From contig JAWKQV010000015.1 in assembly GCA_041389965.1 (NCBI GenBank), positions 111,041-175,040 of the forward strand: DNA of 64,000 nt, given 5' to 3'. Position numbers and translations under genes: made by a program. Shown here piece by piece: positions 2,260-59,013 of the stretch. Source of the stretch: Kofleriaceae bacterium (GTDB lineage Bacteria > Myxococcota_A > Polyangia > Haliangiales > Haliangiaceae). Position 1 is the first letter of the stretch, and the number at the start of each line of letters is the position of its first letter. Under the pieces are notes generated by a model. It was not told the origin of the DNA. It did not search any database and saw nothing but the letters and a program-made list of their open reading frames with translations.

Positions 2260-3702
2260 GTGACTCGCATCTTCCCTCCTCGGAGTCGACCTGCCCGGTC
2301 GGGTGCGCTCGTCCTGGCCCTCGCCACCACCGCCGCCTGCGGCGGTGATGTCGGAGATGAACGGGTCGGCACCGACATCGCGCACCTCCAGCCTGCGCTC
2401 ACCTGCGTGCCGCGTGGCACCGCCCGGCCGGCCGGTGTCACACCCGACGGCGAGCTGTGGATGGTCGGCCCCGGGCAGACCTCGGTGATCGATCTCGACG
2501 GCACCACCGTCGAGGCCCCGTGGGCGCTCGACGACGCCTCGGTGGTGCAGCCGTGGTCGACGCTGACCGCCGCCGCCATCGTCGACGGCGAGGTGTGGAC
2601 CGTGAGCGAGGGCGTCCGCGAGTACGTCCCGACGCCGACCGCCCTGGGCGCGACCGGCGCGCTGTGCGGGTTTCCGTCGGCGCAGCACGGCGCGTTCGTC
2701 GCCACCGCGGGCGGACTGATCGAGCGCTCGTCCGGGCTGTGGTGGCAGTGGACCCCGTCATCCTCGACCAGCTTCGGCACGGTCAAGGACCTGGCGCGCA
2801 TCGACGGCGCGTGCACCGCCGCCGACGGCGCGGTGTGGATGACCAACCAGGACGGCGCGCTGTGGCGGATCACCCGCGAGGCGGCCGAGATCGTGGCCGG
2901 CGCCACCGCGCCGATCAGCGAGGTCGCCATCGTCCCCGGCGAGGGCGCCGCGGTGCGCACCGGCGGCGAGCTGTCGCTCGGTCTGCCGTGGCGCGCCGTG
3001 GTGTTCGACGCCGGCCCGGTCGAGCGGATCGCCAGCGGCGGCGGCCGGCTGTGGGTGGTCGCCGGTGGGATCACCTTCGTACGCACCGCCGGCGCGTGGG
3101 CCATCGTCGACGGCCTGGCCGCGGCGCCGGCCGAGATCTTCCCCGACGCGGCCGGCGCCGCGTGGTTGGCGGTGGGGGATCAGCTGTGCCGCGCCGCCAC
3201 CGATCGCACGGTGCGGGTCGACGGCCTGCTGCCCTTCGAGCAGCGCGTCGCGCCCCTGGCCCAGCTGCGCGTGGTGCCCACCAGCGACGAGACCGAGGTC
3301 ACGATCGATCGCGACGGCGCCACGGTGGCGACCGCGCCGGTGGTCGACGGCGTCGCGACCTTGTCCGACGTCGACCTCGGCGGCGGCGGGTGGCACCAGC
3401 TGACCGTCAAGGCCGGGGCATCGGCGCGCCTGCTCGAGTACAACCTGCTGCAGATCTCGGATCGCACCTGGACCACCGACATCCAGCCGATCTTCGAGGC
3501 CAACTGCGGCGGCACCCGCTGCCACGGGCCGGCGCCGGTGGCCGGCCAGATCGATCTCAGCACCTACGACGGCTGGCGCAGCAAGGCCAGCCGGGTCCGC
3601 GAGCGCCTGCTGGCCGGCACCATGCCGCCCAGCGGGCCGCGCCTCGACAGCGCGACCGTCGACATCGTCCTCGATTGGATCGAAGGAGGCCTCCAGCCAT
3701 GA
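2260..3702 (+). CDS. Lipoprotein with C-terminal planctomycete-cytochrome-like (PSCyt1-like) domain carrying a non-canonical C-X4-CH motif
   Basis: GTG at 2260 is in frame with ORF 2053..3702. The N-terminus MTRIFPPRSRPARSGALVLALATTAACGG is a Lol-type lipoprotein signal with lipobox. The C-terminus IQPIFEANCGGTRCHGP...LAGTMPPSG resembles the PSCyt1 (C..CH ... MPP) signature, but with 4 residues between the cysteines. Confidence 0.6.
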   Translation: MTRIFPPRSRPARSGALVLALATTAACGGDVGDERVGTDIAHLQPALTCVPRGTARPAGVTPDGELWMVGPGQTSVIDLDGTTVEAPWALDDASVVQPWSTLTAAAIVDGEVWTVSEGVREYVPTPTALGATGALCGFPSAQHGAFVATAGGLIERSSGLWWQWTPSSSTSFGTVKDLARIDGACTAADGAVWMTNQDGALWRITREAAEIVAGATAPISEVAIVPGEGAAVRTGGELSLGLPWRAVVFDAGPVERIASGGGRLWVVAGGITFVRTAGAWAIVDGLAAAPAEIFPDAAGAAWLAVGDQLCRAATDRTVRVDGLLPFEQRVAPLAQLRVVPTSDETEVTIDRDGATVATAPVVDGVATLSDVDLGGGGWHQLTVKAGASARLLEYNLLQISDRTWTTDIQPIFEANCGGTRCHGPAPVAGQIDLSTYDGWRSKASRVRERLLAGTMPPSGPRLDSATVDIVLDWIEGGLQP

Positions 3703-5646: not shown

Positions 5647-7271
5647 TGCGTCGCCTCGTGCTCGTCTCCATGCTGGCCGGCCTGGCCGGCCCCTCGCTCG
5701 CCCACGCCGCCTCGCCCGAGGCGTGCGCGCCCGACGCCGCGCCCGACAAGTACCGGATGCTGCGCCAGGTCACCCTCGATCTGTGGGGCCGCATCCCCAC
5801 CTACGACGAGTACCGCGCGCTCGACGATCAGGCCGAGCTCACCGGCGCCGCCATCGACGCGATGTTCACGTCGGAGGAGTACTTCGCCCAGCTCCGGTCG
5901 TACTTCCGCCACCTGATCTGGGGCGGCCTGCCCGACGACTTCGGCGTCACCGGCAGCCAGCGCCGCATGACCCGCCAGGCCACGACCAACCTGTACTTCG
6001 TCGGCAACCTGCGCTCGACGTTCCGCGGCCGGGCCGACGTCACCTGCCTGGACCAGGCGCAGACCAGCTTCGACGCCGACGGCCGGCCGGTGCCGATCTC
6101 TACGTTCGTCGATCCGACCTGCAGCGGCGCCACCCACACCTGCAAGCAGGAGGGGTACGTCATGGTGACGCCGTACTGGAGCGCCACGCCGCTCAAGGTG
6201 TGCGCCTACGACGCCCAGGCCCTGGCGGTCGGGGTCGGCGCCGGCAGCCCGACCTGCACCCCCTACACCATCGACGCCGGCTGCGGCTGTGGCCCCAACC
6301 TGCGCAACTGCACGCCCGGCATCGGCGACGCCAACCACACCGCGATCCGCGACGCCCTGGCCGAGGAGTCGACCCGGATCTTCGACGCGGTGGTCCGGTC
6401 GGGGCGGTCGTACTTCGACACGTTCACGACCCGCGAGACCTACGTCAACGGGCCGCTGGTCCAGTTCTACAAGAACCTGGCCGGCGCCGACATCAAGATC
6501 GAGCAGGGCGGCGCTGTCGGCTACGACCCGCTGATGCCGGCTGCGCTGCCGACGCTGGCGTTCGGCGACGTCGACACCTGGGTGCCGGTCACCCGCCCCG
6601 AGGGCCACGCCGGCGTCCTGACCACCGCCGGGTTCCAGCTGCGGCTGGGCTCGAACCGCGGCCGGGTCAACCGCTGGTACAGCGCGTTCCGGTGCGAGCC
6701 GTTCGTGCCGCCGGCCGGCGGCTTGCCGGCCGACACCGGCGGCGAGCCCGACCCCAACCTACGCACGCGCAACGGCTGCGCGGGCTGTCACAACACCATC
6801 GAGCCGGCCGCCGCGCACTTCGCGCGCTGGCGCACCCAGGGGCAGTTCGGCTTCTTCCCGCCGACGGTGGTGAACGCGTCGGGGCCGCACGCCGGGTGTA
6901 GCACCGGATGTACGTCCGGCGCGTGCAAGTCGTTCTGCGACGCGTACTTCATCACGACCCGCAACTCGACCGCTCAGCAGCAGGCCGACTACATGAGCTG
7001 GCCCCAGGCGAGCCTGTACCTCGACGCCGCCGAGACCGCCGCGATCGACCGCGGCCCGGCCGGCTTGGTCGATGACGCCGACGAGCAGGCCAAGGTCGCG
7101 TCGTGCGCGGTGCGCACCCTGAGCGAGCAGCTGCTGGGCCGCGACCTCACGCCCGACGAGACGCTCAAGTGGCTGCCCGAGGCGACCGCGACCTTCGCGG
7201 CGTCCGGCTACAAGTTCACGTCGCTGTACCGCGCGCTGCTCGACCTGCCGCAGTACCGGCAGACCCGCTGA
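5643..7271 (+). CDS. DUF1549/DUF1553-type secreted protein with CxxCH (c-type haem-binding-like) motif
   Basis: Signal peptide MMRRLVLVSMLAGLAGPSLAHA. LRQVTLDLWGRIPTYDEYRAL matches the DUF1549 (PSCyt2) LDL.G.PPT motif. It also has NGCAGCHNTIEP (CxxCH). Its start overlaps the DUF1501 stop. Confidence 0.7.
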   Translation: MMRRLVLVSMLAGLAGPSLAHAASPEACAPDAAPDKYRMLRQVTLDLWGRIPTYDEYRALDDQAELTGAAIDAMFTSEEYFAQLRSYFRHLIWGGLPDDFGVTGSQRRMTRQATTNLYFVGNLRSTFRGRADVTCLDQAQTSFDADGRPVPISTFVDPTCSGATHTCKQEGYVMVTPYWSATPLKVCAYDAQALAVGVGAGSPTCTPYTIDAGCGCGPNLRNCTPGIGDANHTAIRDALAEESTRIFDAVVRSGRSYFDTFTTRETYVNGPLVQFYKNLAGADIKIEQGGAVGYDPLMPAALPTLAFGDVDTWVPVTRPEGHAGVLTTAGFQLRLGSNRGRVNRWYSAFRCEPFVPPAGGLPADTGGEPDPNLRTRNGCAGCHNTIEPAAAHFARWRTQGQFGFFPPTVVNASGPHAGCSTGCTSGACKSFCDAYFITTRNSTAQQQADYMSWPQASLYLDAAETAAIDRGPAGLVDDADEQAKVASCAVRTLSEQLLGRDLTPDETLKWLPEATATFAASGYKFTSLYRALLDLPQYRQTR

Positions 7272-7295
7272 CCGGCGTGCCGCGCGGCGCCGGCG

Positions 7296-8423
7296 TCACA
7301 GCCCGAGGAGGGTGAGCCCGGCGACGCGCTCGACCAACCACACCGCGCCGAGCCCGGCCAGGACCGCGCCGACGGCCGGCAGCGCCCACCGCCGGTAGCG
7401 CGCAGCACCCAGCGCGCGGGCGGCCAGCCACGCGGTGGGCAGCGCCACGCCGACCACCGCCAGCTGGGCTAGCTCGACGCCGACGTTGAACGCCACCAGC
7501 GGCACCAGCGCGGCGTCGCGGGGCAAGAGCGGCGCCAGCATGCGGGCGAAGCCCAGGCCGTGCATCAACCCGAAGGTGAACGCCACCGGCCACCGCGCCG
7601 CCCGCTCGGGTCGCGCCACCGCGGCGACCGCGGTCCACACGATCGAGCCGGCGATGCCGACCTCGACCAGCCGGGCCGGCAGGCTGACCCAGCCGAGGGC
7701 GGCGGCGATGAGCGTCAGGGAGTGGGCGACGGTGAACGCCGACACCGTGGTCGCCGTGGTGCGCAGCGCCGCCGGCAAGCCGCGGCGTCGCCAGCCGTCG
7801 CCGGCCGGCGCGATGACGATGGCGATGAGCAGCGCCAGCACGAACGCGACGTGGTCGAGCCCGGTGGCCACGTGGTGGACGCCGGCGCGGACGAACGCCA
7901 CCACGTCCGACGGCGGGGGCTGGCCCAGGTCCCACACGAAGCGCGCGGCCTCGGCCACCAGGATGGTGTCGGCCGGCTCCTGGCCCGGCACCGTCACCTG
8001 CAGCGCGGCCTGGTGGGCCGGGTCGAGGTCGAAGAACAGCTGGTACTCGATGGTCAGCTGGGCGATCGGCCGGGCGCAGCGGGCCCGCCACGCGACCACC
8101 GCGCCGTCGCTGTTGGGGTCCGGGCCGGCTTGGACCTCGACCGGCGCGCACGGACCGGCCTCGCTGGCGATGCGGACGTGCGCCGTCACGTAGCGACCGA
8201 CGTCGGCCCAGGTCGTCGGGGTGAACGTCGCCGGCGTGGCCGCGACGTCGGCCGGCAGCCCGGCTGGCTCGGCCAGATCGGCCGCCGCGACCTCGATCTG
8301 GTAGTCGACCTCGTCGCCGACGACCGTCGCGCGGTTGTACGTCACCGAGGCCTGGTGGGCGGCGGCCGGCGTGGCCGCGACCATCAGGACCAGGCCGGCC
8401 AGCGCCACCGCGCGGCCGATCAT
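7296..8423 (-). CDS. HupE/UreJ family metal (Ni/Co-type) transporter-like membrane protein
   Basis: Internal start MIGRAVALAGLVLMVAATPAAAHQ (signal) within ORF 7296..8489. It has the conserved HHVATGLDHVAFVLALLIA (HupE/UreJ_2 GxDH) motif and multiple TM segments. Confidence 0.65.
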   Translation of the reverse strand: MIGRAVALAGLVLMVAATPAAAHQASVTYNRATVVGDEVDYQIEVAAADLAEPAGLPADVAATPATFTPTTWADVGRYVTAHVRIASEAGPCAPVEVQAGPDPNSDGAVVAWRARCARPIAQLTIEYQLFFDLDPAHQAALQVTVPGQEPADTILVAEAARFVWDLGQPPPSDVVAFVRAGVHHVATGLDHVAFVLALLIAIVIAPAGDGWRRRGLPAALRTTATTVSAFTVAHSLTLIAAALGWVSLPARLVEVGIAGSIVWTAVAAVARPERAARWPVAFTFGLMHGLGFARMLAPLLPRDAALVPLVAFNVGVELAQLAVVGVALPTAWLAARALGAARYRRWALPAVGAVLAGLGAVWLVERVAGLTLLGL

Positions 8424-9274
8424 ACGGCCCGGTAGTCGATCCGGAATTCTTGCAGCGCCGCCGGGGTGATGACGTACTGCCGGCCGCACCCGTCGCAGCG
8501 AACCTCGAGCGGGTCGCCCTCGAGCATGGCGTCGATCTCGGGGTCGGGCAGCGTCATGATGCTGGTCATGACCCGGGCCTCGCTGCAGGTGCAGCCGAAC
8601 GTCACCGGCGAGGTGGCCAGCTCCGCGTGCTCGAACCCGGCGAACACCACCTGGGCCAGGTCAGCGGCGGTGCGGCCGCGCCCCTCGAGCAAGAGCCCGA
8701 CTGGCTCGAGGCCACCCAGGTGGTCGGTCATCGCGTCGATGACCTCGCGGGTCGCCTCCGGCAGCAGCTGGACCACGTAGCCGCCCACCGCGCGCACGCC
8801 GCCCGGGCCGGGCAGCGCGGCGATCGCGACCATCGCCACGATCTGTTCGGACTGCTTGAAGTACCGCATCAGCGCGGTCGCCATGTCGTCCCCCTGCGGC
8901 ACCGCCACCACGCCTTGGTGGAGCGATCCGTTGAGCAGGGTGTAGTTCACCTGCAGGCGGTGATCGCCGGAGGTCTTGACCGCGGTGCTCTCGCCCGGGT
9001 TGACCAGGCCGCGGCACACGCCCTCGGGCATGGCGTCGGCGACGAGCGAACCGCCGTTGGCGTCGCGCCACACCAGCTGGACCCGCCGCGACGGCTGGGT
9101 GGTCTCGCGGACCAGGACGGCGGCGGCCAAGAGCTCGGCCAGGTGCAGGCCCAGGTCGTCGCCGGCGCCCTGGGCGGCCAGCGCGCCGCGCGCGGTGTCG
9201 GTCACGACGGCGGAGATCAGGCGGAAGGCGCCATCGAGAGTCATCGCGCGGACGACGCGGTCGGGCTCAGACAT
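8420..9274 (-). CDS. hslO: Hsp33 redox-regulated chaperone
   Basis: From Met72 of ORF 8420..9487 (MSEPDRVVRAMTLDGAFRLIS...) the length is about 284 aa. The C-terminal zinc centre reads FGCTCSEARV...EVRCDGCGRQY (CxC...CxxC), typical of Hsp33. The start is derived by residue counting from the ORF end. Confidence 0.8.
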   Translation of the reverse strand: MSEPDRVVRAMTLDGAFRLISAVVTDTARGALAAQGAGDDLGLHLAELLAAAVLVRETTQPSRRVQLVWRDANGGSLVADAMPEGVCRGLVNPGESTAVKTSGDHRLQVNYTLLNGSLHQGVVAVPQGDDMATALMRYFKQSEQIVAMVAIAALPGPGGVRAVGGYVVQLLPEATREVIDAMTDHLGGLEPVGLLLEGRGRTAADLAQVVFAGFEHAELATSPVTFGCTCSEARVMTSIMTLPDPEIDAMLEGDPLEVRCDGCGRQYVITPAALQEFRIDYRAV

Positions 9275-9600
9275 GGCCGGAGGATATGCGGCGCGGCCAC
9301 CGGCGCAACCTCGCGGGTCGGGTTCCGGTGCTTCGACGCGGCGCGGTGCGCAGGTCGTGCGCAGGTCGTGACGCCGTGTCACGGGCGCGCGCCGGCGCGA
9401 CGCACCCGCGGCGCGGTCCATGCGGCGGCCGGCTTGGCATCGCGCTTGTAACGGTGGGCGGCGTGTCGAGTAGGACCCACCGTGCACGCTCGCCTCGGCC
9501 CGACACGGTGGCGCGACCGGTGCTGGCCGAGGGCGCGATCGCGCCGGTTCGGATCGGCGCTTACCGTCGACGCTGGGGCTGTTCGTGCCGTCCCCGTCCG

Positions 9601-9715
9601 CCTACGAGACTTTCCTGTGGACGCCCGGTTGCAGTGAGGTCGCCAGACCCAGGTAGTTGTCCCCACCGGAGACTTTCTGTGCTACTCGATCGAGTGTCCC
9701 CACTGGAGACTTACG
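9601..9715. repeat. Three direct copies of GGAGACTT(T/A)C-containing motif (two 18-nt copies GTCCCCAC(C/T)GGAGACTT(T/A) 37 bp apart) immediately upstream of the hydrolase gene
   Basis: Read directly: ctacGAGACTTTCctgtgg (9605), GTCCCCACCGGAGACTTTc (9658..9677), GTCCCCACTGGAGACTTAc (9695..9714). The last copy supplies the SD (GGAG) for the ATG at 9716. Confidence 0.5.
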
Positions 9716-11986
9716 ATGCTCAACGACCACGATAGCCAGCCCGACCATGATCAGGACCACGCCGAGGCGCCCGCGCGGGCCGGGGCCAGCGGAGGCGGCG
9801 GGTCGCCCGGCAAGGTGACCCGCACCGGGCGCCTGGCGGCCCCGGCCCGGGCCGACGCGTCGCCTGGTGGCGGCAGCGCGGCGTGGGCTCACCCGACGCC
9901 GGGCGACGAGCCGTTCGGGCTCCATGTCGTCGACGCAGTGCAGCGCCGCGGCGGCGGCACCGGCGCTGGGCCGGGGGAGGTGCGGGCCGCGGCGGCCCAC
10001 GGGCTAGGCGGCGGCGGCGGCGCGTTGCCGTTCGCCAGCCAGATCCAGGCGTCGTTCGGAGCTGCTGCCGACGTGTCGCAGATCACCGCACACGTCGGTG
10101 GGGTCGCGGCCGAGGCATGCGACACCATCGGGGCGACCGCCTACGCCAGCGGCAACCAGGTCGCCTTCGCGGGCAGCCCGGATCTGCACACCGCCGCCCA
10201 CGAAGCTGCCCACGTGGTGCAGCAGGCTCGCGGCGTGAACCTGTACGGTGGCGTGGGCGTCGCCGGCGACGCCTACGAGCGCCACGCCGACGAGGTGGCC
10301 GACCGGGTGGTCGCGGGGCGATCGGCCGAGGACCTGCTCGCGGACCGCCCGAGCGGCGGCGGTCACCGCGCCGCTGATGATGAGCACGGCGACGAGCCCG
10401 ACGACGGGCCCGCGGTCCAGCGCAAGGCCAGCGGCCTGGGCGCCAAGGAGAACCTGCTGGCGCAGTGGAAGCGCGAGATGGTCGAGGTGGCCCACCAGCT
10501 GGCCGGCGAGTTCACTCCGCTCGGCCTGCACTTCCGCCCGCAGATCTTGCTGGCCACCGCGATGCAGGAGGCCGCCGCACGGGATCCGCTGCACGCGGTC
10601 AGCTTCGACAACGGCCTGGGCATCATGCAGATCACGCCGTACCGCGGGAAGCTCGACCCGCAGGTCGCGCGCGCCATCGGCTGGGACAACTCGCGCAGCG
10701 TCAGCGACAACATGCGCAACAGCAACTGGCGCAGCGCCAAGGCCAACCTCCTGGCCGGCGGCTACACCATGCTGTCGAAGGCCAAGGCCATCAAGCGCAT
10801 GGTGCCCAGCGTGTGGGGCCAGATGGACGAGCCCCACAAGTGGCGCGCCGTGCTGTTCGCCTACAACGCCGGCGAGGGCAGCGCGGTGAGCGCGCTGCGC
10901 CGCGGCGGGCCCAACGCCGCCATGATCAGCACGTTCACCGACAAGCGTGGCCGGCGGGTCAGCCACGACTACACCGCCGAGATCAGCGAGAAGATGGACT
11001 ACGTCGATCGCCACGATCCGTTCGGTGGCGCCGGCCACGCGGACGCGCCGCCGGCGCAGCAGGGCAGCGGCGATCACGCGGACGCGCCGCCGGCGCAGCA
11101 GGCCAGCGGCGATCGCGCGGACGCGCCGCCGGCGCAGCAGGGCAGCGGCGATCAGGGCAGCGGCGGGCGGCGCCTGTCCGGGTCGGTCGGCCGCGGCGGC
11201 CGCAACCGTCGCCGCGACGTCAACGCCGTGCAGCAGCACCTGCACCAGCACGGCTTCGCCGCGGTCGGGCGCGTCGACAGCCTGGTCGGCCCCAAGACCA
11301 TCCGCGCCATCGAGGCGTTCCAGCGCGTGGTGCTCGGCATGGTCGACGGCCTGATCCAGCCCGGCAAGAACACCGAGCGGCACCTGTTCGGGGCCGAGCG
11401 TCACCGGCCCCCGGCCGGCGACGAGCACGCACCGACCCCGCCGGCTCACGCCGGCCACGGCGACCGTCCGGGCCAGGCGCCGGCGACGCCGGGCGGTGAT
11501 CACGAGGCGACCCACGGCGCCGCGCCCGCTGCCGCCGGTCACGACGCCGAGCACCCCAGCTGGGCCGCCATCAGCCGCAACTTCGGCGGCCGCATCGGTG
11601 GGTCGCGCTTCACGTGGCACGAGGCGCTGTGGCTGCCGTCGTTCGGCCGCCACGTCCAGCCCAGCGACGTCACCAACATCTCGATCGACACGCTGATCGC
11701 CAACGTCGAGCGCCAGGCCCAGGCGTTGTCGGCGGTGGCCAACGCCCTCGGCAAGTCGATCGTCGTCCACTGCTGGGTGCGCCCGCCGGCGTACAACCGG
11801 CGCATCGGCGGCGCCGGCAACTCGGCCCACCTGCGCGGGATGGCGACCGACTTCCACTGCCCCGGCATGTCGGCCGAGCAGGTGCGGCGGGCGGTCAAGA
11901 GCCAGCATCTGTACCCCGGTGCCGGCGAGAACAACGTGAGCTGGGTCCACCTCGACCTCGAGCACCGCGCCTGGTTCAACCCGTGA
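9716..11986 (+). CDS. Multi-domain secreted-effector-like cell-wall hydrolase: DUF4157 (HExxH metallopeptidase-like) + lytic transglycosylase (SLT) + peptidoglycan-binding (PG_binding_1) + Peptidase M15A-like D-Ala-D-Ala carboxypeptidase domain
   Basis: DUF4157 signature: [26 protein letters not shown]...[32 protein letters not shown] signature: [32 protein letters not shown]-binding signature: [37 protein letters not shown]15-like signature: [13 protein letters not shown]...WVHLDLEH. The protein has no signal peptide and contains three 13-aa repeats ([13 protein letters not shown]). Confidence 0.75.
11036..11152 (+). repeat. 39-bp near-perfect tandem repeat x3 inside hydrolase gene (encodes HADAPPAQQ(G/A)SGD linker repeats)
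   Basis: cacgcggacgcgccgccggcgcagcagggcagcggcgat is repeated three times with 1-2 substitutions. Confidence 0.7.
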
Positions 11987-13161
11987 CCGACGCCGGCGCG
12001 TCGACCGAGGCCGCCGCCGCGCCGCCGTGGCCCGACATGGTGGAGGTCACCGCCCAGGTCGTGGTGGTCCCGGCGACCGCGCTGTGGCCGGTCCACGAGT
12101 CGATCGCGGCGCCGGGCTGGCTGGCGCGGGTCGTGAGCGGCGAGGGCCGGGGCGCGTCGATCGCGCAGCTGGCGGTGGCCGTCGGCGCCGGCCTCATCGC
12201 GGCGCCGGCGGGCGAGCTGACCGCGTCGCGGTTGGGCCTCGACGCGGGCGCGTGGGAGCGCGAGTTTCCGCTGGCCTTCGACGCCGACGGGGCCGTGGTG
12301 CTGGCGCCCGACCGGCCGGGGCCGACCCGCCAGGTGGCGCCCTTGGCCGAGCTGCGCCTGCCGGTCGGGCGGGTGGTGCGGCCGTGCGCTGCGCGGTGGG
12401 GGCGCGGGCCGGCCTGGCCGGTGGTCCGCGCGCTCGGCGGCGAGGGCAGCCGCGGCGAGGCCGACCTGTTCGACCGCGGCGATCGGGTCTACGTGGTGGG
12501 GCGGGTCGACGGCTGGGCGCTGGTCGCCACCTCGTACGACGAGCACCCCCACCGCTGGCTGCCGGCCGCGGTGGTGGCGGCGGCCGACGGCGCGGAACCG
12601 ACCGACGGTGGCGCCGACGACGACGGCGGCGACCCGGCCGACGGCGCCGACCCGGTCGACGCGACCGCGTCCACGCTCGGCCACGACGATCTGGGCGGCA
12701 CCACCGACGCTCCGGTGCTGGAGGCGATGATCGCCCTGGCGATGGCGGCGGTGGCGCGGCGAGCCGACGGCGCCGCGGCCGACGAGGTGGCGGCGGAGGT
12801 GGCGATCCTGCTCGACCGTTGGGCCGACAGCGACCTCGAGGACGATCCGCGGCTGGCGGCGCTGCCGGCCCTCGATCGGGTGGTGTTGGCGCTGGCAGTG
12901 GCGCCGGCGCTCGACCGCGCGGTCGCCCTGGCCTACCGGGCCAGCGCCGGCGAGCTGGCGCCGACGGTCGGCTTCGTGGTCGAGCTGGCGGCGACGTCGC
13001 CGCGCGACCGCATCCGCGCCACCCGCCGCCTCACCGCCGATTGCGCCTTGCGCCAGAGCGGGGCGGTGGTCACCGACGGCGCCGACGTGCCCCGCGCCGA
13101 TTCGCCGGTGGCGGTGGCGGACTGGGTGGTCGCCGCGCTGTACGGCCTGGCCGACCCGTAG
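11983..13161 (+). CDS. Hypothetical protein translationally coupled to the hydrolase (candidate immunity/partner protein)
   Basis: GTG at 11983 overlaps the hydrolase TGA (GTGA) and is in frame with the tail of ORF 11614..13161. About 392 aa, Ala/Asp-rich, with an acidic [16 protein letters not shown] segment. No family recognised. Confidence 0.45.
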
Positions 13162-13170
13162 CGCGCGGCG

Positions 13171-29671: not shown

Positions 29672-30076
29672 GGACCGGGATTGTGCCGGTCCGGGCCGGG
29701 CAGGCACGCCCCGGTGGCAACAATCTGCAAGCGCCGCCCGGTGGCCACACCGGGCCCCACGGCCGTGGCAGAGTCGACCTGGTCGGGCCACGCCGCCGGT
29801 CCATTGGTGGACCGAAGGATTTTCAGCCGGACGGAAATCCTGAACCATCGCAACGCTTCGGCACTTCCGGCGTGTCGCGCGGAGACCTACCCAGATGGAT
29901 GAGCTGACCACATCCGTCGTACCCATCGGCCGCCGCACCCGCGTCGGCGATCTGCCTGGCGAGCCCGCACCCGCGGCCGCGGGGCCCGCACCGATCCGCG
30001 GTGCCGGCCGGCGTGTCGCGCCGGCGCGGCCCGGCCCGGCTCGCGATCCGTCCACCCTCTGCACCGGGAGGTCCGC

Positions 30077-30835
30077 GTGACCCTGTTCGATGCCTCGCTG
30101 CAGTTCCCCACGGTGCTGTTCACCATCGGCCTGCTCATCGCGCTGGTGTACTGGCTGTTCGTGATCCTCGGCGCGCTCGACGTCGACCTGCTGGGCGGGG
30201 CCGACGACGTCACCGGCGCGCTCAAGGGCGGCGGCGAGGCGCTCACCGGCGGCGTCAAGGGCGCGGCCGAGATCGCGGGCGGCCACGCCGACGCCGGCGA
30301 CGCGCTGACCGGGGCCGCCAAGGGCAGCGGCGAGGCGGTCACCTCGGGCGCCGGTCTGTGGGCCTGGCTCGGGCTGACCTCGGTGCCGGTGACGGTATCG
30401 GCCTCGCTCATCATGCTGCTGGGCTGGTCGGGATCGGTGCTGCTGATGCACTACGGCACCGGCGCGGTGGGCCCGGTGCTGGGGGCGGTGCTGGCGCTGG
30501 CGGTGGTGCTAGCGGTGCTGCCGGTCGTCGGGCTGCTGGTGCGCCCGCTCAAGCCGGTGTTCGAGGTCAAGGTCGGCAAGCGCAACCGCGAGTACGTCGG
30601 CTCGACCTGCACCATCACCACCGGCCACGTCGACGACGGGTTCGGACAGGCCGTCCTCGAGGAGGGCGCCACCGTGCTGGTCATCCCGGTCCGGTGCGAC
30701 CGCGGCGGCGTGCTGCCGCGTGGGGCCCGGGCGCTGATCATCGACTTCGACGCCGCCCGCCACGCCTACCTGGTCGAGCCGGTCACCGAGCTTCTGGGCG
30801 CGCCGCCCGCCGGTGACGCCGGTGATGCCTCATAG
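30077..30835 (+). CDS. YqiJ/NfeD-like inner-membrane protein (DUF1449-like; OB-fold C-terminus)
   Basis: GTG start. TM helices (VLFTIGLLIALVYWLFVILG; LIMLLGWSGSVLL; VLGAVLALAVVLAVLPVVGLLV) are followed by a soluble domain VGSTCTITTGHVDDGFGQAVLEEGATVLVIPVRC, typical of NfeD/YqiJ partners of flotillins. Confidence 0.6.
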   Translation: MTLFDASLQFPTVLFTIGLLIALVYWLFVILGALDVDLLGGADDVTGALKGGGEALTGGVKGAAEIAGGHADAGDALTGAAKGSGEAVTSGAGLWAWLGLTSVPVTVSASLIMLLGWSGSVLLMHYGTGAVGPVLGAVLALAVVLAVLPVVGLLVRPLKPVFEVKVGKRNREYVGSTCTITTGHVDDGFGQAVLEEGATVLVIPVRCDRGGVLPRGARALIIDFDAARHAYLVEPVTELLGAPPAGDAGDAS

Positions 30836-30922
30836 CCGTCGGCCGACCGCACGGTCGTCGCGTCGTCTCGTCGTCTCGGGGGTCACGTTCGTGGCCGGCG
30901 CTGGCCGGCCGAGGAGTCTCGC

Positions 30923-33079
30923 ATGGACAAGCAGCTGCTCATCGCCGTCGTCGGCATCTCCGTGGTCGTCCTGTTCGGACTGATGGTGCTGATCGCCCGC
31001 ACCTTCCGCCAGGTCGAACAGGGTCGCGCCATGATCATCAACCGCCTGCGCGGCGAGCCCAAGGTGACCTTCTCGGGGTCGGTGGTGCTGCCGGTGGTCA
31101 ACAAGGCCGAGATCATGGACCTGTCGGTCAAGACCATCGACGTCGCCCGCCGCGGCAAGGACGGCCTGATCTGCGCCGACAACATCCGCGCCGACATCAA
31201 GGTCACGTTCTTCGTCCGGGTCAACAAGACCGTCGACGACGTGCTGCGGGTCGCGCAGTCGATCGGGTGCGCCCGGGCTTCGCAGCAGTCGACCCTCGAG
31301 GAGCTGTTCGCCGCCAAGTTCTCGGAGGCGCTCAAGACCGTCGGCAAGAAGATGGAGTTCGAGCAGCTCTACACCCAGCGCGACGTGTTCAAGGACCAGA
31401 TCATCGCGGTCATCGGCAAGGACCTCAACGGCTACGTCCTCGACGACGCCGCCATCGACTACCTCGAGCAGACGCCGATCGAGATCCTCGATCCCAACAA
31501 CGTCCTCGACGCGCTGGGCATCCGCAAGATCACCGACATCACCACGTCGGCCGCCATCGACACCAACCAGCTCAAGCAGAAGGAGCGGATGGAGCTGGGC
31601 AAGCAGAACCTGACCTCCGACGAGGCCATCTTCCGCTTCGAGCAGCAGCGGTCCGAGGCCGAGGCCAAGAAGAACAAGGAGATCGCGATCGCCAACGCCC
31701 GCGAGGAGAACGAGGCCAGCCGGTTCCGGCTCGAGGAGGAGAAGCGCACCCACGTCGACCGCCAGCGCGCCGAGGAGGCCATCCAGATGGCCGAGCAGGC
31801 CAAGCTGCGCGCGGTCCAGGTCAGCGAGCAGGGCCGGGTCCGCGAGGTCGAGGTCGAGAAGGTCCGCGTGGCCAAGGCCCACGATCTCGAGGAGGTCGTG
31901 CGCCGCCGCGAGGTCGAGCTGGGCCAGATCGAGATGGCCAAGGTGGTCGAGGCCGAGAAGCGCTCGATCGCCGACATCGTGCGGGCCCGGGTCGCGGTCG
32001 ACAAGACCGTCGCGGTCGAGGAGGAGGCCATCAAGGACCTGCGCACCGACGCCGAGGCCAAGCGCCACAAGCACGTCACCATCGTCAACGCCGAGGCGGC
32101 GGCCCAGGAGATCTTCATCAAGGACATCAAGAAGGCCGAGGCCGAGCAGCAGGTGGCGTCGGCCCACGCCAAGAAGCAGCTGATCCTGGCCGAGGCGGCC
32201 ATGGAGGCGTCCGACAAGGAGGCCCGCGCGGCGATCCGGCGCAGCGAGGGCACCCAGGCCGAGCACGCCGCGCCGGGCCTGGCCGCGGTGCGGGTCAAGG
32301 AGGCCGACGCGATCGCGCTGGAGAAGACCGGCATGGCCCAGGCCAAGGTCAAGGAGGCCCAGGTCCAGGTGGCCGACCGCGAGGGCGTGGTCGTGGCCGA
32401 GAACGTGCGGCGCAAGGCCATGGCCGAGGCGGCCGGGCGCGAGGCCGAGGCCGCGGCCATCGAGAAGACCGGCCTGGCCGAGGCGGTCGGGCTGCGCGAG
32501 AAGTTGTTGGCCGAGGTCACCGCCAAGGAGGCCGAGGCCGGCGCCATCGAGAAGCGCATGCTGGCCGAGGCCCACGGCCTGGCCCAGAAGGCCGAGGCGA
32601 TGCGCGCGCTCGAGGGCTCGGCCCGGGAGCACGAGGAGTTCCGGCTGCGGCTGGCCAACGAGCGCGAGATCGCGCTCGAGCAGATCAAGGCGCGGGTCGC
32701 GGTGTCCGACTCCCAGGCCAAGGTCATGGCCGAGGCCATGGGCAAGGCCGACATCAAGATCGTCGGCGGCGACGGCCAGTTCTTCGACCGCTTCGTGCGG
32801 GCGGTGTCCCTGGGCCAGGCGATCGACGGCGTGGTCGACAGCTCCGAGGTGGTGCGCGGCGCGCTGGGCGACCGGCTCACCAGCGGCTCGGGCGCGCTGG
32901 TGCAAGACCTGAAGGACGTGGTCGGCGCCGTCGGTGGCTCGGCGGCGAACCTGCAGCACCTGTCGGTGGCGGCCGCGCTGGCCGGGCTGATGGCCAAGGC
33001 CGATGAGCCGACCCGGGCCAAGCTGGCGAGCCTGCTCGAGCAGGCCAAGCAGCTGGGCCTCGACGCACCGACCCGGTGA
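30923..33079 (+). CDS. Flotillin family protein (SPFH/band-7 domain; YqiK/FloT-like) with long coiled-coil C-terminus
   Basis: N-terminal TM MDKQLLIAVVGISVVVLFGLMVLIA, then an SPFH core (RAMIINRLRGEPKVTFSGSVVLPVV...DNIRADIKVTFFVRV). It has extensive EA-rich coiled-coil repeats. GAGGAG RBS. Confidence 0.85.
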   Translation: MDKQLLIAVVGISVVVLFGLMVLIARTFRQVEQGRAMIINRLRGEPKVTFSGSVVLPVVNKAEIMDLSVKTIDVARRGKDGLICADNIRADIKVTFFVRVNKTVDDVLRVAQSIGCARASQQSTLEELFAAKFSEALKTVGKKMEFEQLYTQRDVFKDQIIAVIGKDLNGYVLDDAAIDYLEQTPIEILDPNNVLDALGIRKITDITTSAAIDTNQLKQKERMELGKQNLTSDEAIFRFEQQRSEAEAKKNKEIAIANAREENEASRFRLEEEKRTHVDRQRAEEAIQMAEQAKLRAVQVSEQGRVREVEVEKVRVAKAHDLEEVVRRREVELGQIEMAKVVEAEKRSIADIVRARVAVDKTVAVEEEAIKDLRTDAEAKRHKHVTIVNAEAAAQEIFIKDIKKAEAEQQVASAHAKKQLILAEAAMEASDKEARAAIRRSEGTQAEHAAPGLAAVRVKEADAIALEKTGMAQAKVKEAQVQVADREGVVVAENVRRKAMAEAAGREAEAAAIEKTGLAEAVGLREKLLAEVTAKEAEAGAIEKRMLAEAHGLAQKAEAMRALEGSAREHEEFRLRLANEREIALEQIKARVAVSDSQAKVMAEAMGKADIKIVGGDGQFFDRFVRAVSLGQAIDGVVDSSEVVRGALGDRLTSGSGALVQDLKDVVGAVGGSAANLQHLSVAAALAGLMAKADEPTRAKLASLLEQAKQLGLDAPTR

Positions 33080-33209
33080 CCCGGCGCTCGGCCCGCGCGA
33101 GGCGGGGTGGCCGGTGGCCCCACGGCGCCGGCGCCCCCCTCGGTCGTCCCCGAACTTCCGTGCCCGACGGCGCCTGCGCCATCGGCGCGCTCGTCCCTGC
33201 GAGGTCCCC

Positions 33210-36200
33210 ATGGCTGATGTCGACGCCGCCCTGACCGGTGGCAACTACCAGGTGCTCCGGCAACGGCTGGCCGCGGCCGGCGCCGAGCTGGCGCGCCGCG
33301 CCGAGGCGCTCAACCAGCGCCGCAAGACGCTGTTCGGGGCGACCGAGCCGCAGCTCTTGGCCACCGAGCGGGTGCGCTCGGCCCACAACTGCGCGCCGGT
33401 CGATATCGTCGCGGTGGGCGACGAGCTGTTGCTCGGCTTCAACGTGTTCCTCGGGCTCAAGAGCGAGACCCAGGTCAGCGACGTGCTGGCGCGCCACCGG
33501 TTCGAGCCGACCGAGGGCGGCGGCTTCGACACCGCGCCGGTGGCGGCCGGCGGCCCCGACGACTTCCTGGCCGGGCCCGACCTGGCCCGAGACTTCGCCA
33601 ACCTGTACCGCTACTACCGCGACGCCCGCCTGATCCAGCTCATCAAGCGCGACACCCTGCTGTTGGCGGTGTTCCAGGCCGGCGCCACCTGGCGCGACCA
33701 CAAGGTGCTGCGCTGGCGCATCGAGCCCGACGGCCGGGTGGTCTACGTCGACGACCGCGGCGACCGCGACCTGGCCGGGCTGTACCCGCCGGCCTACGAC
33801 TTCGCGTGGCGCGAGGTCACCCGCGACGACCAGGTGGCCGGACGCCACCCGCACTACAACCTGCTCGACCAGGTGTTCGTCGAGACCGTCGGCGGCGACC
33901 TGACCATCAAGGTCGAGGACAACACCGAGACCGGCCGCGGCATCTACCGCGAGCCGGTCGAGGACGCCAACCAGTCGCTCGACGACGCCCGCATCTGGTA
34001 CGCGCCCATCGGCAAGCCGGGCGGGCTGATCGTGATCAAGGTGCTGCCGTTCCGGGAGACCACCTGGCGCTACCTGGTGTTCGACGCCCGCTCGCGCACG
34101 GTGGTGCGGGCCGACGGCATCGGCCAGGGCTGCCGCTCGTTGCCCGAGGACCACGGCGTGGTGTTCCCGGGTGGCTACGTGCTGGTCGGCGGCGCCCACA
34201 AGACCTTCGACGGCGACGCCACCGACTACGTGCTCAAGCGCGAGCTGCGCTCGCCCAACGGCGAGGACGTGCTGTACGTCTACCACCGCGGCCGCGACGG
34301 CACCTACCTGCTGTACCCGTACAACCTGATCGACAAGGCGGTGGCCACGCCGATCACCTGCCACGGCTACTCGCTGTTCGCCGACGGCCGGATGGTGGTG
34401 CTGCGGGCCGGCTCGGCCGAGCCGACCCGGGTCCACCCGATGCAGGTGTGGCGCACGCCGTTCACCTCGGCCGAGCACGCGGCGTCGGCGCCCACTGACG
34501 GCAGCTACCTGGCCAAGGTCGGCAACGCCGAGCTGGTGCGCGGGCTGTCGGACGCGCTGTCGATCGCCCGGCTGGCCGCCAGCGACCGGCCCCAGCGCTC
34601 GACCTTCGAAGACCTGCTGGCGCTGGCGACCAAGGCCGGCGACGCCTACTACTGGCTGGGCCACCCCGACGCCGGCGAGCTGAGCGGCGCGGTGGCCGAC
34701 GTCAAGGCCGCTGCGAAGCTTATCCTCGACGAGTACGACAAGGTGCTGGCGCTGGAGGCGGCCGCCGCGGTGGCGGTCACCGAGGCCGAGGCCGCGGTGG
34801 CCGAGCGGCTGCGAGCGACCCGGTCCGAGGGCTGGGACACGGTCGAGCCGTTCCTCGACGCGCTGACCGGGCTGCGCGGGCTGCGCGGGCTGCTCATCAG
34901 CCAGCGCGAGCTGCGGTTCGTCGACGTGGCGCGCCTGGCCGCGCTCGAGGCCGAGGTGGTGGCGGCGTTCGACCGCGTCACCGCGGACTGTGTGACGCTC
35001 TTGGCGCGCGGCGACGCCTTCGGGGCGCTGGTGGCGCGGGCCGCGGACCTGGCCGCGCAGGCCGGCCAGCTGACCACGGCGGCGGCGGTGGCGCCGCTGC
35101 GGGCCCAGATCGACGAGGTGGCCGGCGGGCTCGACCTGCTGGGCTCGGTGATCGGCTCGCTGGCCATCGCCGACACCACCCGCCGCACCGCGATCCTCGA
35201 GAACATCACCGACGCGTTCGCCGCGGTGAACCGCGGCCGGGCGGTGGTCGAGGGCCGCCACCGCGAGCTGGCCACCCACGAGGGCCGGGCCGAGTTCGGC
35301 GCCCAGGTGAAGCTGCTCGGCCAGACCGTGGCGTCGGCGCTGGCCCAGTGCGACACGCCCGAGCGGTGCGACCAGGAGCTGGCCCGGCTGTTGGTCTCGC
35401 TCGAAGAGCTGGAGGGCCGGTTCGCCGAGCTCGACGAGCTGGCCGCGGAGCTGGCCACCAAGCGTGAGGAGATCGTCGACGCGGTCGGGGCCAGAAAGCA
35501 GCTCCTGGCGGCCGAGCGGCAACGCCGGACCGCCAACCTGCACAAGGCGGCGCAGCGGATCCTCGACGGCGTCGCCCGCCGGGCCGGTGCGCTGACCAGC
35601 GCCGACGAGATCAACGCGTACTTCGCGTCCGACGCGATGATCGCCAAGCTGCGCGACGTGGTCGCCGAGCTGGCGGCGCTGGGCGACGCGGTCAAGGCCG
35701 ACGAGCTGGAGGCCCGCCTCAAGGCCGCGCGCCAGGACGCGCTGCGCGGGCAGCGCGACGCCGCCGACCTGTTCGAGGACGGCGGCGGGTTGATCCGGTT
35801 GGGCGACCACCGCTTCCCGGTCAACCAGCAGCCGCTCGAGCTGATGATCGTGCCCCACGACGACGGGCTGGCGATCCACCTGGCCGGCACCGACTACTAC
35901 GAGGCGGTGACCGACCCGCGGCTGGTCGCGGCCCGCGCGCTGTGGGATCAGGACCTGCCGTCGGAGTCGGCCACGGTCTACCGCGGCGAGTACCTGGCGG
36001 CGGCGGTGCTGGCCGAGGCCGAGGCCGGCGCCGGCGGGCTGACGGTGGCGGCGCTCCACGACCAGGTCCGGGCCGGCACGCTCGAGGCGACGCTGCGCCA
36101 GCTAGCCCAGGCCCGCTACGACGAGGGCTACGAGCGCGGCGTGCACGACCACGACGCGGCCCGCATCCTCGAGAAGCTGTTGGCCATGCGCGACGGCGCC

Positions 36201-58103: not shown

Positions 58104-58904
58104 TCACGGGCCGCCCAGGTAGTCGACCTTGGCCTCGACGTGGAAGTGGTCGTAGTGGCTCTTGGGATCGTTGCGCGGGGTCAGCACGGTGCGGAAGCCG
58201 CCCGAGTCGTTGAGGTAGTCCTCGACCCGGAGTAGCAGCGGATCGTCCTTGAGGTAGTCGTCCTGCACCACCGCCTTGTGGCCGGTGTCGTCGACGATCG
58301 CGCGGATGTCGATGGCCAGGCCCAGCGCGTGGCGCGACAGCGCGCGCTTGGTCGTTCCGCCGGTGCGGACCTGCGTGTAGCCGTAGATGCGCGAGAAGTA
58401 GAGCTCGCGGACGCCGCGCGCATACAGCTCGCGGCCGTGGAGCGTGAGCGCCACCGCCAGCTCGCAGTCCATGATGAACGGCGGCCGGCGGAAGGTCGGG
58501 ATGACCTTGAGGCCGCCGAACTCCATCGCCGCCACGGTGATCGGCGTGGCGATCTTGCGCTGCTTGGGCGCCGGCTTCCAGGACACCCCGAGCTGGTCGA
58601 GCTGCGTGGTGCAGGCGACGCCCTGCTTGCGCATCGCCGGCGTCGGCGGCCAGGCCCACCCCGACGGCATGTTGGCAGGGCGGGCCGACGGCCGGGCCGC
58701 GCGCGAGGCGCGCTTGCCCTTGCGCTTGCGGGTGCCCTTGCGATTGCGCTTGCGCTTGCCCTTCGGCTTGCGCGTGGCCTTGGTCGACGGCTTGGCCTGG
58801 GTCGTGGCGTGGGGCGGGCCGGCTTGGGGCGGGGCAGCCGCCGCCACGTCGGGCGCGCACAGGGCGAGCGCGCCGACCAGGACCGCGAGCAGACGACAGG
58901 ACAC
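58104..58904 (-). CDS. Secreted protein with Lys/Arg-rich linker and extensin-like C-terminal domain (tentative family)
   Basis: Signal MSCRLLAVLVGALALCAP, then a KPKGKRKRNRKGTRKRKGKR stretch. The C-terminus ...FSRIYGYTQVR...SRHALGLAIDIR resembles bacterial Extensin-like_C proteins. Confidence 0.5.
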   Translation of the reverse strand: MSCRLLAVLVGALALCAPDVAAAAPPQAGPPHATTQAKPSTKATRKPKGKRKRNRKGTRKRKGKRASRAARPSARPANMPSGWAWPPTPAMRKQGVACTTQLDQLGVSWKPAPKQRKIATPITVAAMEFGGLKVIPTFRRPPFIMDCELAVALTLHGRELYARGVRELYFSRIYGYTQVRTGGTTKRALSRHALGLAIDIRAIVDDTGHKAVVQDDYLKDDPLLLRVEDYLNDSGGFRTVLTPRNDPKSHYDHFHVEAKVDYLGGP

Positions 58905-58946
58905 CGCCGGACGGTACTACGCCTGCGCCGGGGAGCCACCCGCTTC

Positions 58947-58966
58947 GCCCCCGGTGTACACCGGGG
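58947..58966. promoter_or_regulatory. Perfect 20-bp palindrome CCCCCGGTGTACACCGGGGG in divergent intergenic region
   Basis: Read directly. It lies between the extensin-like gene (-, start 58904) and the giant ORF (+, 59014). Confidence 0.5.
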
Positions 58967-59013
58967 GCTCACGGCGGCGGCGCGCGCCCCGGCCGCGCGG
59001 TACCTTCGGCGCC

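Follow-up and report, generated by a model that had tools for sequence, protein, structure and literature searches.

The two genes analyzed here, ORF1 and ORF2, are located on the plus strand of a 64-kb stretch of DNA with 74% G+C (the whole of this stretch is referred to as the window) and encode a large protein with cell-wall-directed hydrolase domains, discussed below as possible cargo of a contractile injection system (CIS), and a small acidic partner protein (Table 1). Both proteins are 100% identical to two NCBI proteins of a metagenome-assembled genome (MAG) of a Kofleriaceae (Myxococcota, Haliangiales), which are named 'D-Ala-D-Ala carboxypeptidase family metallohydrolase' and 'hypothetical protein R3B06_24960', respectively; an actinobacterial origin, which the G+C content might suggest, was rejected for this reason. 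The coordinates that a preliminary description of the window had given for ORF1 are correct, as the ATG at position 9716 is the earliest start past the upstream stop codon and is preceded by a GGAG motif 8 nt further 5′; the stop codon of ORF1 occupies positions 11984–11986. The GTGA overlap of the two genes noted there is real as well, and ORF2 is, as had been stated, an acidic protein of 392 aa. That it is coding is indicated by the G+C content at the codon positions of the plus frame (GC3 0.96, GC2 0.58), which also favors this frame over a minus-strand open reading frame at 11539–13170 as the real gene. Since the conserved PPWP motif of ORF2 (residues 14–17) lies upstream of the next in-frame methionine (residue 19), the true start must precede this methionine, and the GTG at 11983 is the only start identified there. 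The pair is bordered by a divergent Hsp33 gene on one side and a convergent TetR gene on the other, which marks ORF1 and ORF2 as a two-gene unit.

Table 1. Features of the ORF1/ORF2 locus (positions refer to the window; residues to the respective protein).
Feature	Position	Strand	Description
26-nt direct repeat, two copies (TGTCCCCACYGGAGACTT...)	9658..9683 and 9695..9720	+	copy 2 contains the ribosome-binding site and ATG of ORF1
ORF1	9716..11986	+	756 aa; signal-less multidomain protein: leader, DUF4157, SLT, PG_binding_1, M15; GC3 0.93
Leader	9716..10033	+	residues 1–106; hydrophilic, rich in Gly/Pro/Ala/Asp, disordered
DUF4157 / eCIS_core	10034..10360	+	residues 107–215; HEAAH at residues 162–166 (nt 10199–10213)
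Acidic linker	10361..10435	+	residues 216–240; junction of N-terminal module and hydrolase module
Family-1 lytic transglycosylase (SLT / goose-lysozyme fold)	10436..11029	+	residues 241–438
39-bp x 3.1 tandem repeat	11036..11154	+	13-residue unit x3 in the disordered linker between SLT and PG_binding_1; TRF, 95% matches
PG_binding_1	11180..11395	+	residues 489–560; Pfam match at residues 499–537, E 2e-5
M15 zinc peptidase (Peptidase_M15_3, PF08291)	11546..11983	+	residues 611–756
GTGA	11983..11986	+	ORF2 start codon overlapping ORF1 stop codon
ORF2	11983..13161	+	392 aa, pI 4.39; no export signal; rare family
ORF2 N-domain	12013..12582	+	residues 11–200; beta-rich; motifs PPWP, ALWxxHE, RPCxPRxGRG
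ORF2 linker	12589..12696	+	residues 203–238; acidic, disordered (pLDDT <50), length varies among homologs
ORF2 C-domain	12709..13152	+	residues 243–390; helical / winged-helix, homologous to PF22977 N-domain of Afp15-type CIS AAA+ ATPases

The DUF4157-SLT-PG_binding-M15 architecture proposed for ORF1 was recovered by Pfam matches and, in the case of the SLT domain, by invariant motifs and fold. The notion that all four modules are directed at the cell wall holds for the SLT, peptidoglycan-binding (PGB) and M15 domains, but overstates the case for DUF4157. The latter matches PF13699 (eCIS_core/DUF4157) at residues 107–173 with an E-value of 9e-12 (45.4 bits versus a cutoff of 22). For the SLT domain, the match to PF01464 (residues 274–395, E 9.5e-4, 19.2 bits) stays under the gathering score of 21.3. 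Nevertheless, the assignment is sound, because the catalytic E285 and the motifs GLGIMQ (Q305) and AYNAG (Y383-N384-A-G386) are invariant in 25 of 25 homologs, and because the domain, modeled by AlphaFold2 (AF2) with a predicted local distance difference test (pLDDT) score >90, is matched by Foldseek with probabilities of 0.98–1.0 to MltE, MltF, MltC and g-type lysozyme; precomputed PF01464 matches also exist for many homologs of ORF1. The M15 domain was identified by its match to Peptidase_M15_3 (residues 664–747, E 7e-13, 49.1 bits versus 23.2) and contains the zinc ligands H705, D712 (SxHxxGxAxD) and H745, all of which are conserved among homologs. Foldseek matched it with a probability of 1.0 to the Zn DD-peptidase 1lbu, which itself combines PGB and M15 domains and is, together with phiKZ gp144, among the structural partners of the ORF1 domains. 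Endolysin families of the PHROG collection were matched by the M15 domain (E 3e-17) and also by the PGB domain. A sequence search of the PDB with ORF1 alone yielded no match, and a profile of the ORF1 family matched only PGB domains (SleB, 1lbu, phiKZ gp144). The hydrolase domains are basic (pI 9.3–11.5).

These domains are separated by long flexible stretches. An AlphaFold model based on homologs comprises confident domains at residues 240–438, 489–560 and 611–735 and three linkers predicted, like residues 1–119, to be disordered; in the AF2 model, residues 1–119, 210–237 and 439–483 have a pLDDT <50. The leader contains the motifs PGKVTRT (residues 31–37) and DEPFGLH (residues 63–69). In accordance with the preliminary description, no Sec or lipoprotein signal was apparent: the N-terminus is hydrophilic, with a mean Kyte-Doolittle hydropathy of -1.0 for the first 50 aa and a highest 15-residue value of 0.17 within the first 80 aa, and a hydropathy scan of the whole protein revealed neither a signal peptide nor a stretch resembling a transmembrane segment.

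Homology searches with ORF1 yielded about 1,780 homologs, of which the best 80 were used for statements on architecture and 120 for counting the leader motif. With few exceptions, the best 80 measure only 520–600 aa and align from around residue 240 of ORF1 (the median start of homology for the short homologs) to its C-terminus. These short proteins consist of SLT, PGB and M15 domains behind a short hydrophilic leader and contain neither DUF4157 nor a signal peptide, i.e., residues 241–756 of ORF1 represent the entire length of a free-standing, signal-less SLT-PGB-M15 family. The leader and DUF4157 (residues ~25–240) are 47–68% identical to Kofleriaceae-type DUF4157 proteins with Lipase_3, M23, VanY or unknown C-terminal ends, and the full four-domain architecture was found elsewhere only in one protein, P0002 (61% identity). 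As shown by these homology boundaries, ORF1 is a graft of a leader-DUF4157 module onto a pre-existing, free-standing and signal-less SLT-PGB-M15 protein. The SLT module, with or without PGB, is in turn also fused to glucosaminidase, NlpC/P60 and WHH/colicin-DNase domains. This modular and polymorphic make-up is the behavior described for toxins associated with extracellular contractile injection systems (eCIS; PMC8213781, PMC11297309). A leader motif of the form PG[KR]xx[LR]T at positions 21–31, followed by DDPFxLH, is present in 19 of the 120 homologs, namely in ORF1, in P0002, in 12 further DUF4157 proteins and in five hydrolases devoid of DUF4157. One of the fusions is P0099, a metagenomic protein of 830 aa, whose SLT module is 68% identical to residues 241–438 of ORF1 and is joined to WHH and colicin-DNase-like nuclease domains; the transglycosylase may thus serve other toxins as a wall-penetration module in some relatives.

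For ORF2, word-indexed homolog searches returned only the protein itself or two fragments with a winged-helix domain (WHD), probably because of its Ala-rich low complexity, so that 1.84 billion representatives had to be scanned in full with HMMER. Only 16 relatives were revealed in this way, about six of which are full length at 43–47% identity; the family comprises about 12 clusters at 50% identity. A metagenome scan with the ORF2 alignment yielded zero matches. The family is real, though rare. Its conserved parts are the N-domain, the acidic linker, which is variable, and the C-domain, and the AlphaFold model (pLDDT 76, predicted template modeling score 0.68) accordingly shows an N-domain rich in beta structure and a helical C-domain (pLDDT ~90), joined by a disordered linker. 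The N-domain includes a stretch resembling an SH3-like barrel (WALVA...RWLP); the matches that structure searches gave for ORF2 (SH3, FGE-like and winged-helix) were all weak. Within the acidic linker, 18-bp repeats are found at positions 12581–12661.

ORF2 had previously been called unrecognised, which remains true for its N-domain, for which no significant structural match was obtained, but not for its C-terminus, which matches the WHD family PF22977 (E 3.7e-8, 33.7 bits versus a cutoff of 27). In line with this, hhalign aligned the C-domain with the N-domains of eight CIS-type ATPases over 99 columns with a probability of 94% (E 1.5e-7). BLASTP of ORF2 against WHD-AAA ATPases yielded nothing, so the kinship is visible to profile methods only, and a literature search on PF22977 and the Pvc15 winged helix likewise found nothing. 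According to Pfam, ORF2 has no AAA+ domain and ends at the WHD. As neither an N-terminal hydrophobic region nor a lipobox was detected by hydropathy and sequence inspection, ORF2 is predicted to be cytoplasmic. It matched no known immunity or defense family; a role in anti-phage defense was checked and rejected.

The genomic surroundings of the hydrolase module in related loci (designated L001 and following) are of two mutually exclusive types, i.e., loci with an ORF2-like gene lack the ATPase described below and vice versa; the leaders of the hydrolases differ between the two clades as well. ORF2 homologs are located directly 3′ of genes for hydrolases without DUF4157 in L005, L006/L007, L008 (a Kofleriaceae MAG) and L009 (a Myxococcales MAG). 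The conservation of ORF2 beside the hydrolase module in these five other loci indicates that it is a real partner. The two genes overlap by 4 nt in L006 but are separated by gaps of 24 nt in L008 and 200 nt in L005; GTGA coupling is therefore not universal in the family. In L009, a long-read assembly, the ORF2-like gene (8001–9264) matches in two frames, which points to a frameshift, and hence a pseudogene, or to an indel in the assembly. In L013–L015, ORF2 is split into two overlapping genes encoding the N-domain (210 aa) and the WHD (190 aa). In L013 (effector and split genes together at 7257–10573), they follow a different signal-less effector of 709 aa that comprises a DDPFGLH leader, acidic repeats, PGB, a middle domain and a VanY-like end; a large Ser/Thr kinase is encoded next, together with an FHA-sigma54 activator.

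No ORF2-like gene accompanies the same hydrolase module in L004, L016, L001/L002 and 11 metagenome loci of the ATPase type, so that the synteny of ORF2 is kept in part of the family only. L004, with the closest full-length relative, is the only other locus with a DUF4157-SLT-PGB-M15 gene, which occupies the syntenic position with the carboxyltransferase and acyltransferase flanks retained. In place of ORF2 (at 3190–3550), it contains hexanucleotide-type simple repeats and an unrelated minus-strand gene for a 184-aa protein, and the catalytic motifs of its SLT and M15 domains are intact. In L001 and L002, the gene for the short hydrolase is situated directly 3′ of a gene for a ~700-aa protein with PF22977-WHD and AAA domains and 5′ of a gene for a 700–856-aa protein. 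A metagenome scan identified 19 hydrolase loci, and in 11 of these, which is most of the loci with enough flanking sequence, the WHD-AAA ATPase gene adjoins the hydrolase gene. The hydrolase family is thus usually flanked by a PF22977-bearing protein, either an Afp15-type ATPase or, in a smaller clade, an ORF2-like protein. Among 72,556 plasmids, the best matches of this ATPase include ATPases that Halogeometricum borinquense and a Streptomyces plasmid encode within bona fide CIS clusters, where the ATPase genes adjoin genes for sheath, tube and baseplate as well as DUF4255 and DUF4157 genes. These plasmid-encoded ATPases carry PF22977 with E-values of 8e-31 and 2e-22, which identifies PF22977 as the N-domain of Afp15-type CIS ATPases. 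In Haliangiales, the conserved and widespread ATPase-type cassette (L001 6818–13799; L002 7034–14210; L018–L025) has the order [273-aa Cys-rich protein]-[WHD-AAA ATPase]-[SLT-PGB-M15]-[700–856-aa protein] and is located between carA and purN/purM without any tail genes. The N- and C-domains of ORF2 are unrelated to the 273-aa and 700–856-aa proteins. The 273-aa protein contains a possible lipobox ('IATC') and would be a better candidate for a periplasmic immunity protein than ORF2.

The reading that we favor, and to which we assign about an even chance of being correct on the sequence evidence, is that ORF1 represents an orphan CIS cargo or effector encoded away from its phage-tail-like machine and ORF2 an accessory adaptor or chaperone. 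Delivery of ORF1 as a signal-less effector by a dedicated injection route, as anticipated in the preliminary description, is supported by four agreeing lines of evidence: its cargo architecture, the presence of leader and DUF4157 on other toxin-like ends, the linkage of hydrolase and ATPase genes, and the absence of phage relatives. DUF4157 serves as a marker for eCIS toxins (PMC8213781; PMC11297309). For AlgoCIS, loading was shown by experiment for the cargos Cgo1 and Cgo2, each made up of an N-terminal domain (NTD) that is disordered, DUF4157 and a variable C-terminal domain, and loading via the AAA+ protein Alg15 needs the NTD but not DUF4157 (bioRxiv 10.64898/2026.05.27.728243). By analogy, the ~100-aa disordered leader of ORF1 (PGKxxxT...DEPFGLH) would act as a system-specific loading sequence, and DUF4157 would be a cargo-marker domain with a possible role in chaperoning or self-processing. 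The C-terminal 520 aa would form the payload acting on the wall of a target bacterium, with an activity that we infer from its domains and active-site residues: PGB would bind peptidoglycan, the transglycosylase (E285) would cut the glycan strands and the M15 domain (H705/D712/H745) the peptide stems. ORF2 would serve this hydrolase module specifically, as an accessory protein in the cytoplasm; its SH3-like N-domain would hold the basic hydrolase, whereas its winged-helix C-domain, probably a copy of the N-domain of the AAA+ ATPase acting as CIS loader, would link the cargo to the machinery that loads it. A further role of ORF2 may be to hold the enzyme in an inactive state. The role proposed for ORF2 is derived from the homology of its domains and from the fact that ORF2-like and ATPase genes are distributed in a complementary manner; an adaptor or chaperone is favored because ORF2 has no export signal, is dispensable in L004 and in ATPase-type loci and contains a copy of the loader N-domain.

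ORF1 resembles the DUF4157 eCIS toxins (the 'PVC-metallopeptidase' proteins, the eCIS-associated toxins (EATs) of Geller, 2021, those of Danov, 2024, and Cgo1/Cgo2) in the order of leader, DUF4157 with HExxH motif, linker and variable C-terminus, in lacking a Sec signal and in the reuse of its N-terminal module on varied C-termini. Unlike them, it is encoded by a solitary gene between Hsp33 and TetR/carboxyltransferase genes, carries a triple SLT+PGB+M15 payload that exists free-standing too, and is accompanied by a WHD-bearing partner, for which no equivalent is described for EATs. With EAT10 of Pseudoalteromonas luteoviolacea, a peptidoglycan-hydrolase eCIS toxin found to be 10^4-fold more toxic in the periplasm and hence a precedent for such a payload, it shares the description as an antibacterial cell-wall hydrolase with predicted eCIS delivery, periplasmic action and no obvious immunity gene (PMC8213781). 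EAT10, however, has no DUF4157 and is encoded inside an eCIS operon. ORF2 in turn resembles the Afp15/Pvc15/Alg15-type ATPases (PF22977 WHD + AAA) in its C-domain, which is homologous to their N-terminal winged-helix region, and such an ATPase occupies its neighbor position beside the same hydrolase in relatives. As ORF2 has no AAA domain and consists in its N-terminal half of an unrelated beta domain of the SH3-like type, it is neither an ATPase nor a member of the Afp15 family. As a small acidic cytoplasmic protein encoded beside its cognate effector it is also reminiscent of adaptors and chaperones of type VI secretion systems (T6SS), such as DUF4123, DUF1795/EagR and DUF2169 proteins, but shows no homology to T6SS adaptor or immunity families. 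ORF1 can be placed as a new protein in the class of DUF4157-tagged effectors, and the pair is set apart by a WHD partner that is complementary to the CIS-type ATPase.

Several observations weigh against this interpretation. About 55 open reading frames of the window were compared with Pfam, and those without a Pfam match also with PHROGs; as already noted in the preliminary description, no CIS, T6SS or other apparatus gene was found. In particular, sheath, tube, baseplate, DUF4255 and CIS ATPase genes are missing from the window, so that the stretch free of CIS genes extends over at least 9.7 kb upstream and 50 kb downstream of the pair, and none of the related loci examined, including L004 and L010, contains an apparatus gene within ±10 kb. 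By comparison, 88% of the eCIS toxins of a published training set are located no more than ten genes from the operon (PMC11297309). The ATPase-hydrolase cassette without tail genes implies that the ATPase may serve a non-CIS process, and, as seen in L004, the DUF4157 fusion can be kept without ORF2. Moreover, the PF22977 match is strong only for the ORF2 of the window (E 2e-3 to 6e-3 for its relatives), and the N-domain of ORF2 has no significant counterpart in structure searches. The PGKxxxT leader motif is absent from the DUF4157 proteins of an archaeal CIS locus, for which reason the PGK leader was rejected as a universal CIS signal, and no support for it was found in the literature. In favor of the interpretation, CIS clusters, some of them missed by standard hidden Markov models, have been reported in MAGs of Haliangiales and other Myxococcota (bioRxiv 10.1101/2024.12.19.629468; PMC11937823).

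The preliminary description had taken the two genes for a toxin and its immunity protein. A genuine pair of this kind, in which ORF2 is a cytoplasmic inhibitor protecting the producer, is in our view unlikely, and less likely in its classical form than an orphan cargo with an adaptor. Until ORF1 is exported, the inhibitor would, for example, shield D-Ala-D-Ala or UDP-MurNAc-pentapeptide precursors from destruction by the M15 domain, which is sensible if this domain can attack D-Ala-D-Ala-containing precursors in the cytoplasm of the producer. ORF2 does lie directly 3′ of ORF1, co-oriented and with a start/stop overlap, as expected for the co-transcribed partner in a toxin-immunity pair and similar to T6SS peptidoglycan-hydrolase pairs such as Tse1/Tsi1 and VgrG3/TsiV3, and adjacent immunity genes exist for some eCIS toxins. 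It is also acidic (pI 4.4), as opposed to the basic hydrolase domains. Furthermore, immunity genes usually track the toxin domain, and the partner indeed follows the hydrolase payload and not the leader and DUF4157; in L013, it also adjoins a PGB+VanY-like effector. However, immunity proteins to peptidoglycan-hydrolase effectors, e.g., the Tsi proteins of T6SS, are periplasmic, whereas ORF2 has neither a signal peptide nor a lipobox, though a peptidoglycan hydrolase acts in the periplasm. The hydrolase of L004, with intact SLT and M15 motifs, persists without ORF2, and the same applies to the hydrolase modules of L001, L002 and the 11 ATPase-type metagenome loci. Finally, ORF2 has no match among known immunity or defense families, and its sole recognizable domain is that of a CIS ATPase. 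For these reasons, the immunity reading is doubtful.

The signal-less SLT+PGB+M15 module also resembles modular phage endolysins, with whose families the PGB and M15 domains match in PHROG, and it might accordingly be an autolysin that lyses the producer for the release of tail-like particles or during myxobacterial development, with ORF2, or the AAA+ ATPase in relatives, setting the time of lysis. Producer lysis releases eCIS particles, and toxins may contribute to it (discussed in PMC8213781); in addition, the conserved chromosomal site of the relatives' cassette between carA and purN/purM is reminiscent of a core gene. ORF1 shares with such endolysins and with the Zn DD-peptidase of Streptomyces albus (1lbu) the arrangement and fold of PG_binding_1 and M15 as well as a catalytic domain of the SLT/goose-lysozyme type, but differs in being much larger, in its long disordered linkers, in its additional leader and DUF4157 and in having no phage context or holin. 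We consider an autolysin quite improbable, since no holin, spanin or prophage genes are present near the pair, no relatives of ORF1 were found in 2.9 million viral contigs (IMG/VR), DUF4157 and the leader recur in lipase, M23 and VanY proteins, which indicates a delivered cargo, and the SLT module is fused to nuclease toxin domains too. A phage or prophage origin was likewise rejected, as there are no viral relatives and the PHROG matches exist at the domain level only. Very improbable, in turn, is that ORF1 is an effector not of a CIS but of a T6SS or of a myxobacterial contact-dependent killing apparatus. A passage in PMC11297309, citing Wood et al. (2019), states that some T6SS effectors contain DUF4157-like domains, both T6SS and a Tad-like killing apparatus are employed by Myxococcota (bioRxiv 10.1101/2024.12.19.629468), and CIS genes are not visible in the window. 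Yet VgrG, PAAR, Hcp and T6SS adaptor domains were found neither in ORF1 and ORF2 nor elsewhere in the window, and both the partner domain PF22977 and the neighboring ATPase in relatives belong to the CIS Afp15 type and not to the ClpV type.

How a CIS chooses and loads its cargo is an open question that limits the engineering of such particles for protein delivery. The same payload is found here in four states, namely adjoining an ATPase, with ORF2 only, with both DUF4157 and ORF2 (in the window) and with DUF4157 but without ORF2 (L004), and their comparison offers a natural experiment on cargo loading. An adaptor role of ORF2 would indicate which part of the ATPase recognizes cargo, and overlapping chaperone-like roles of DUF4157 and ORF2 would be suggested; if ORF2 is a plain inhibitor, the locus is merely one more effector pair. 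In addition, a candidate predation weapon, a putative double-acting wall hydrolase, is added for the little-studied Haliangiales myxobacteria. A further-reaching and fairly improbable idea is that ORF2-like proteins form an undescribed class of stand-alone 'loader N-domain' adaptors that route one peptidoglycan-hydrolase cargo to the loader. Such an adaptor would be a detached copy of the cargo-recognition winged helix of a CIS ATPase that is joined to an SH3-like domain for cargo binding or, as in L013, encoded next to it. The tail-less cassette of Haliangiales could be a module for AAA+-driven hydrolase export or lysis without a contractile tail.

Beyond the TetR gene, the pair is followed by carboxyltransferase and acyltransferase genes, and HupE/UreJ is also among its neighbors. 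The 26-nt repeat around the ORF1 start, of which a third, partial copy is located near position 9603, may be a regulatory element or a mere local duplication; as a conserved operator it was rejected, as it was not found upstream of any homolog. Elsewhere in the window, an open reading frame of more than 1866 aa (58402–63999, GC3 0.96) runs off the window end and has zero Pfam matches. Three plus-strand genes at 29903–38516 encode a 310-aa protein, a 747-aa SPFH/Band_7 protein and a giant 1841-aa ATPase (DUF3686 + DUF7902 + AAA); no PADLOC model matched this cluster. In the CIS locus of Halogeometricum borinquense plasmid pHBOR03 (L011, 9493–13469 and 26354–29725), DUF4157/HELAH genes alternate with genes for four mutually similar proteins of ~300–320 aa, which suggests that DUF4157-partner pairs exist in an archaeal CIS as well.

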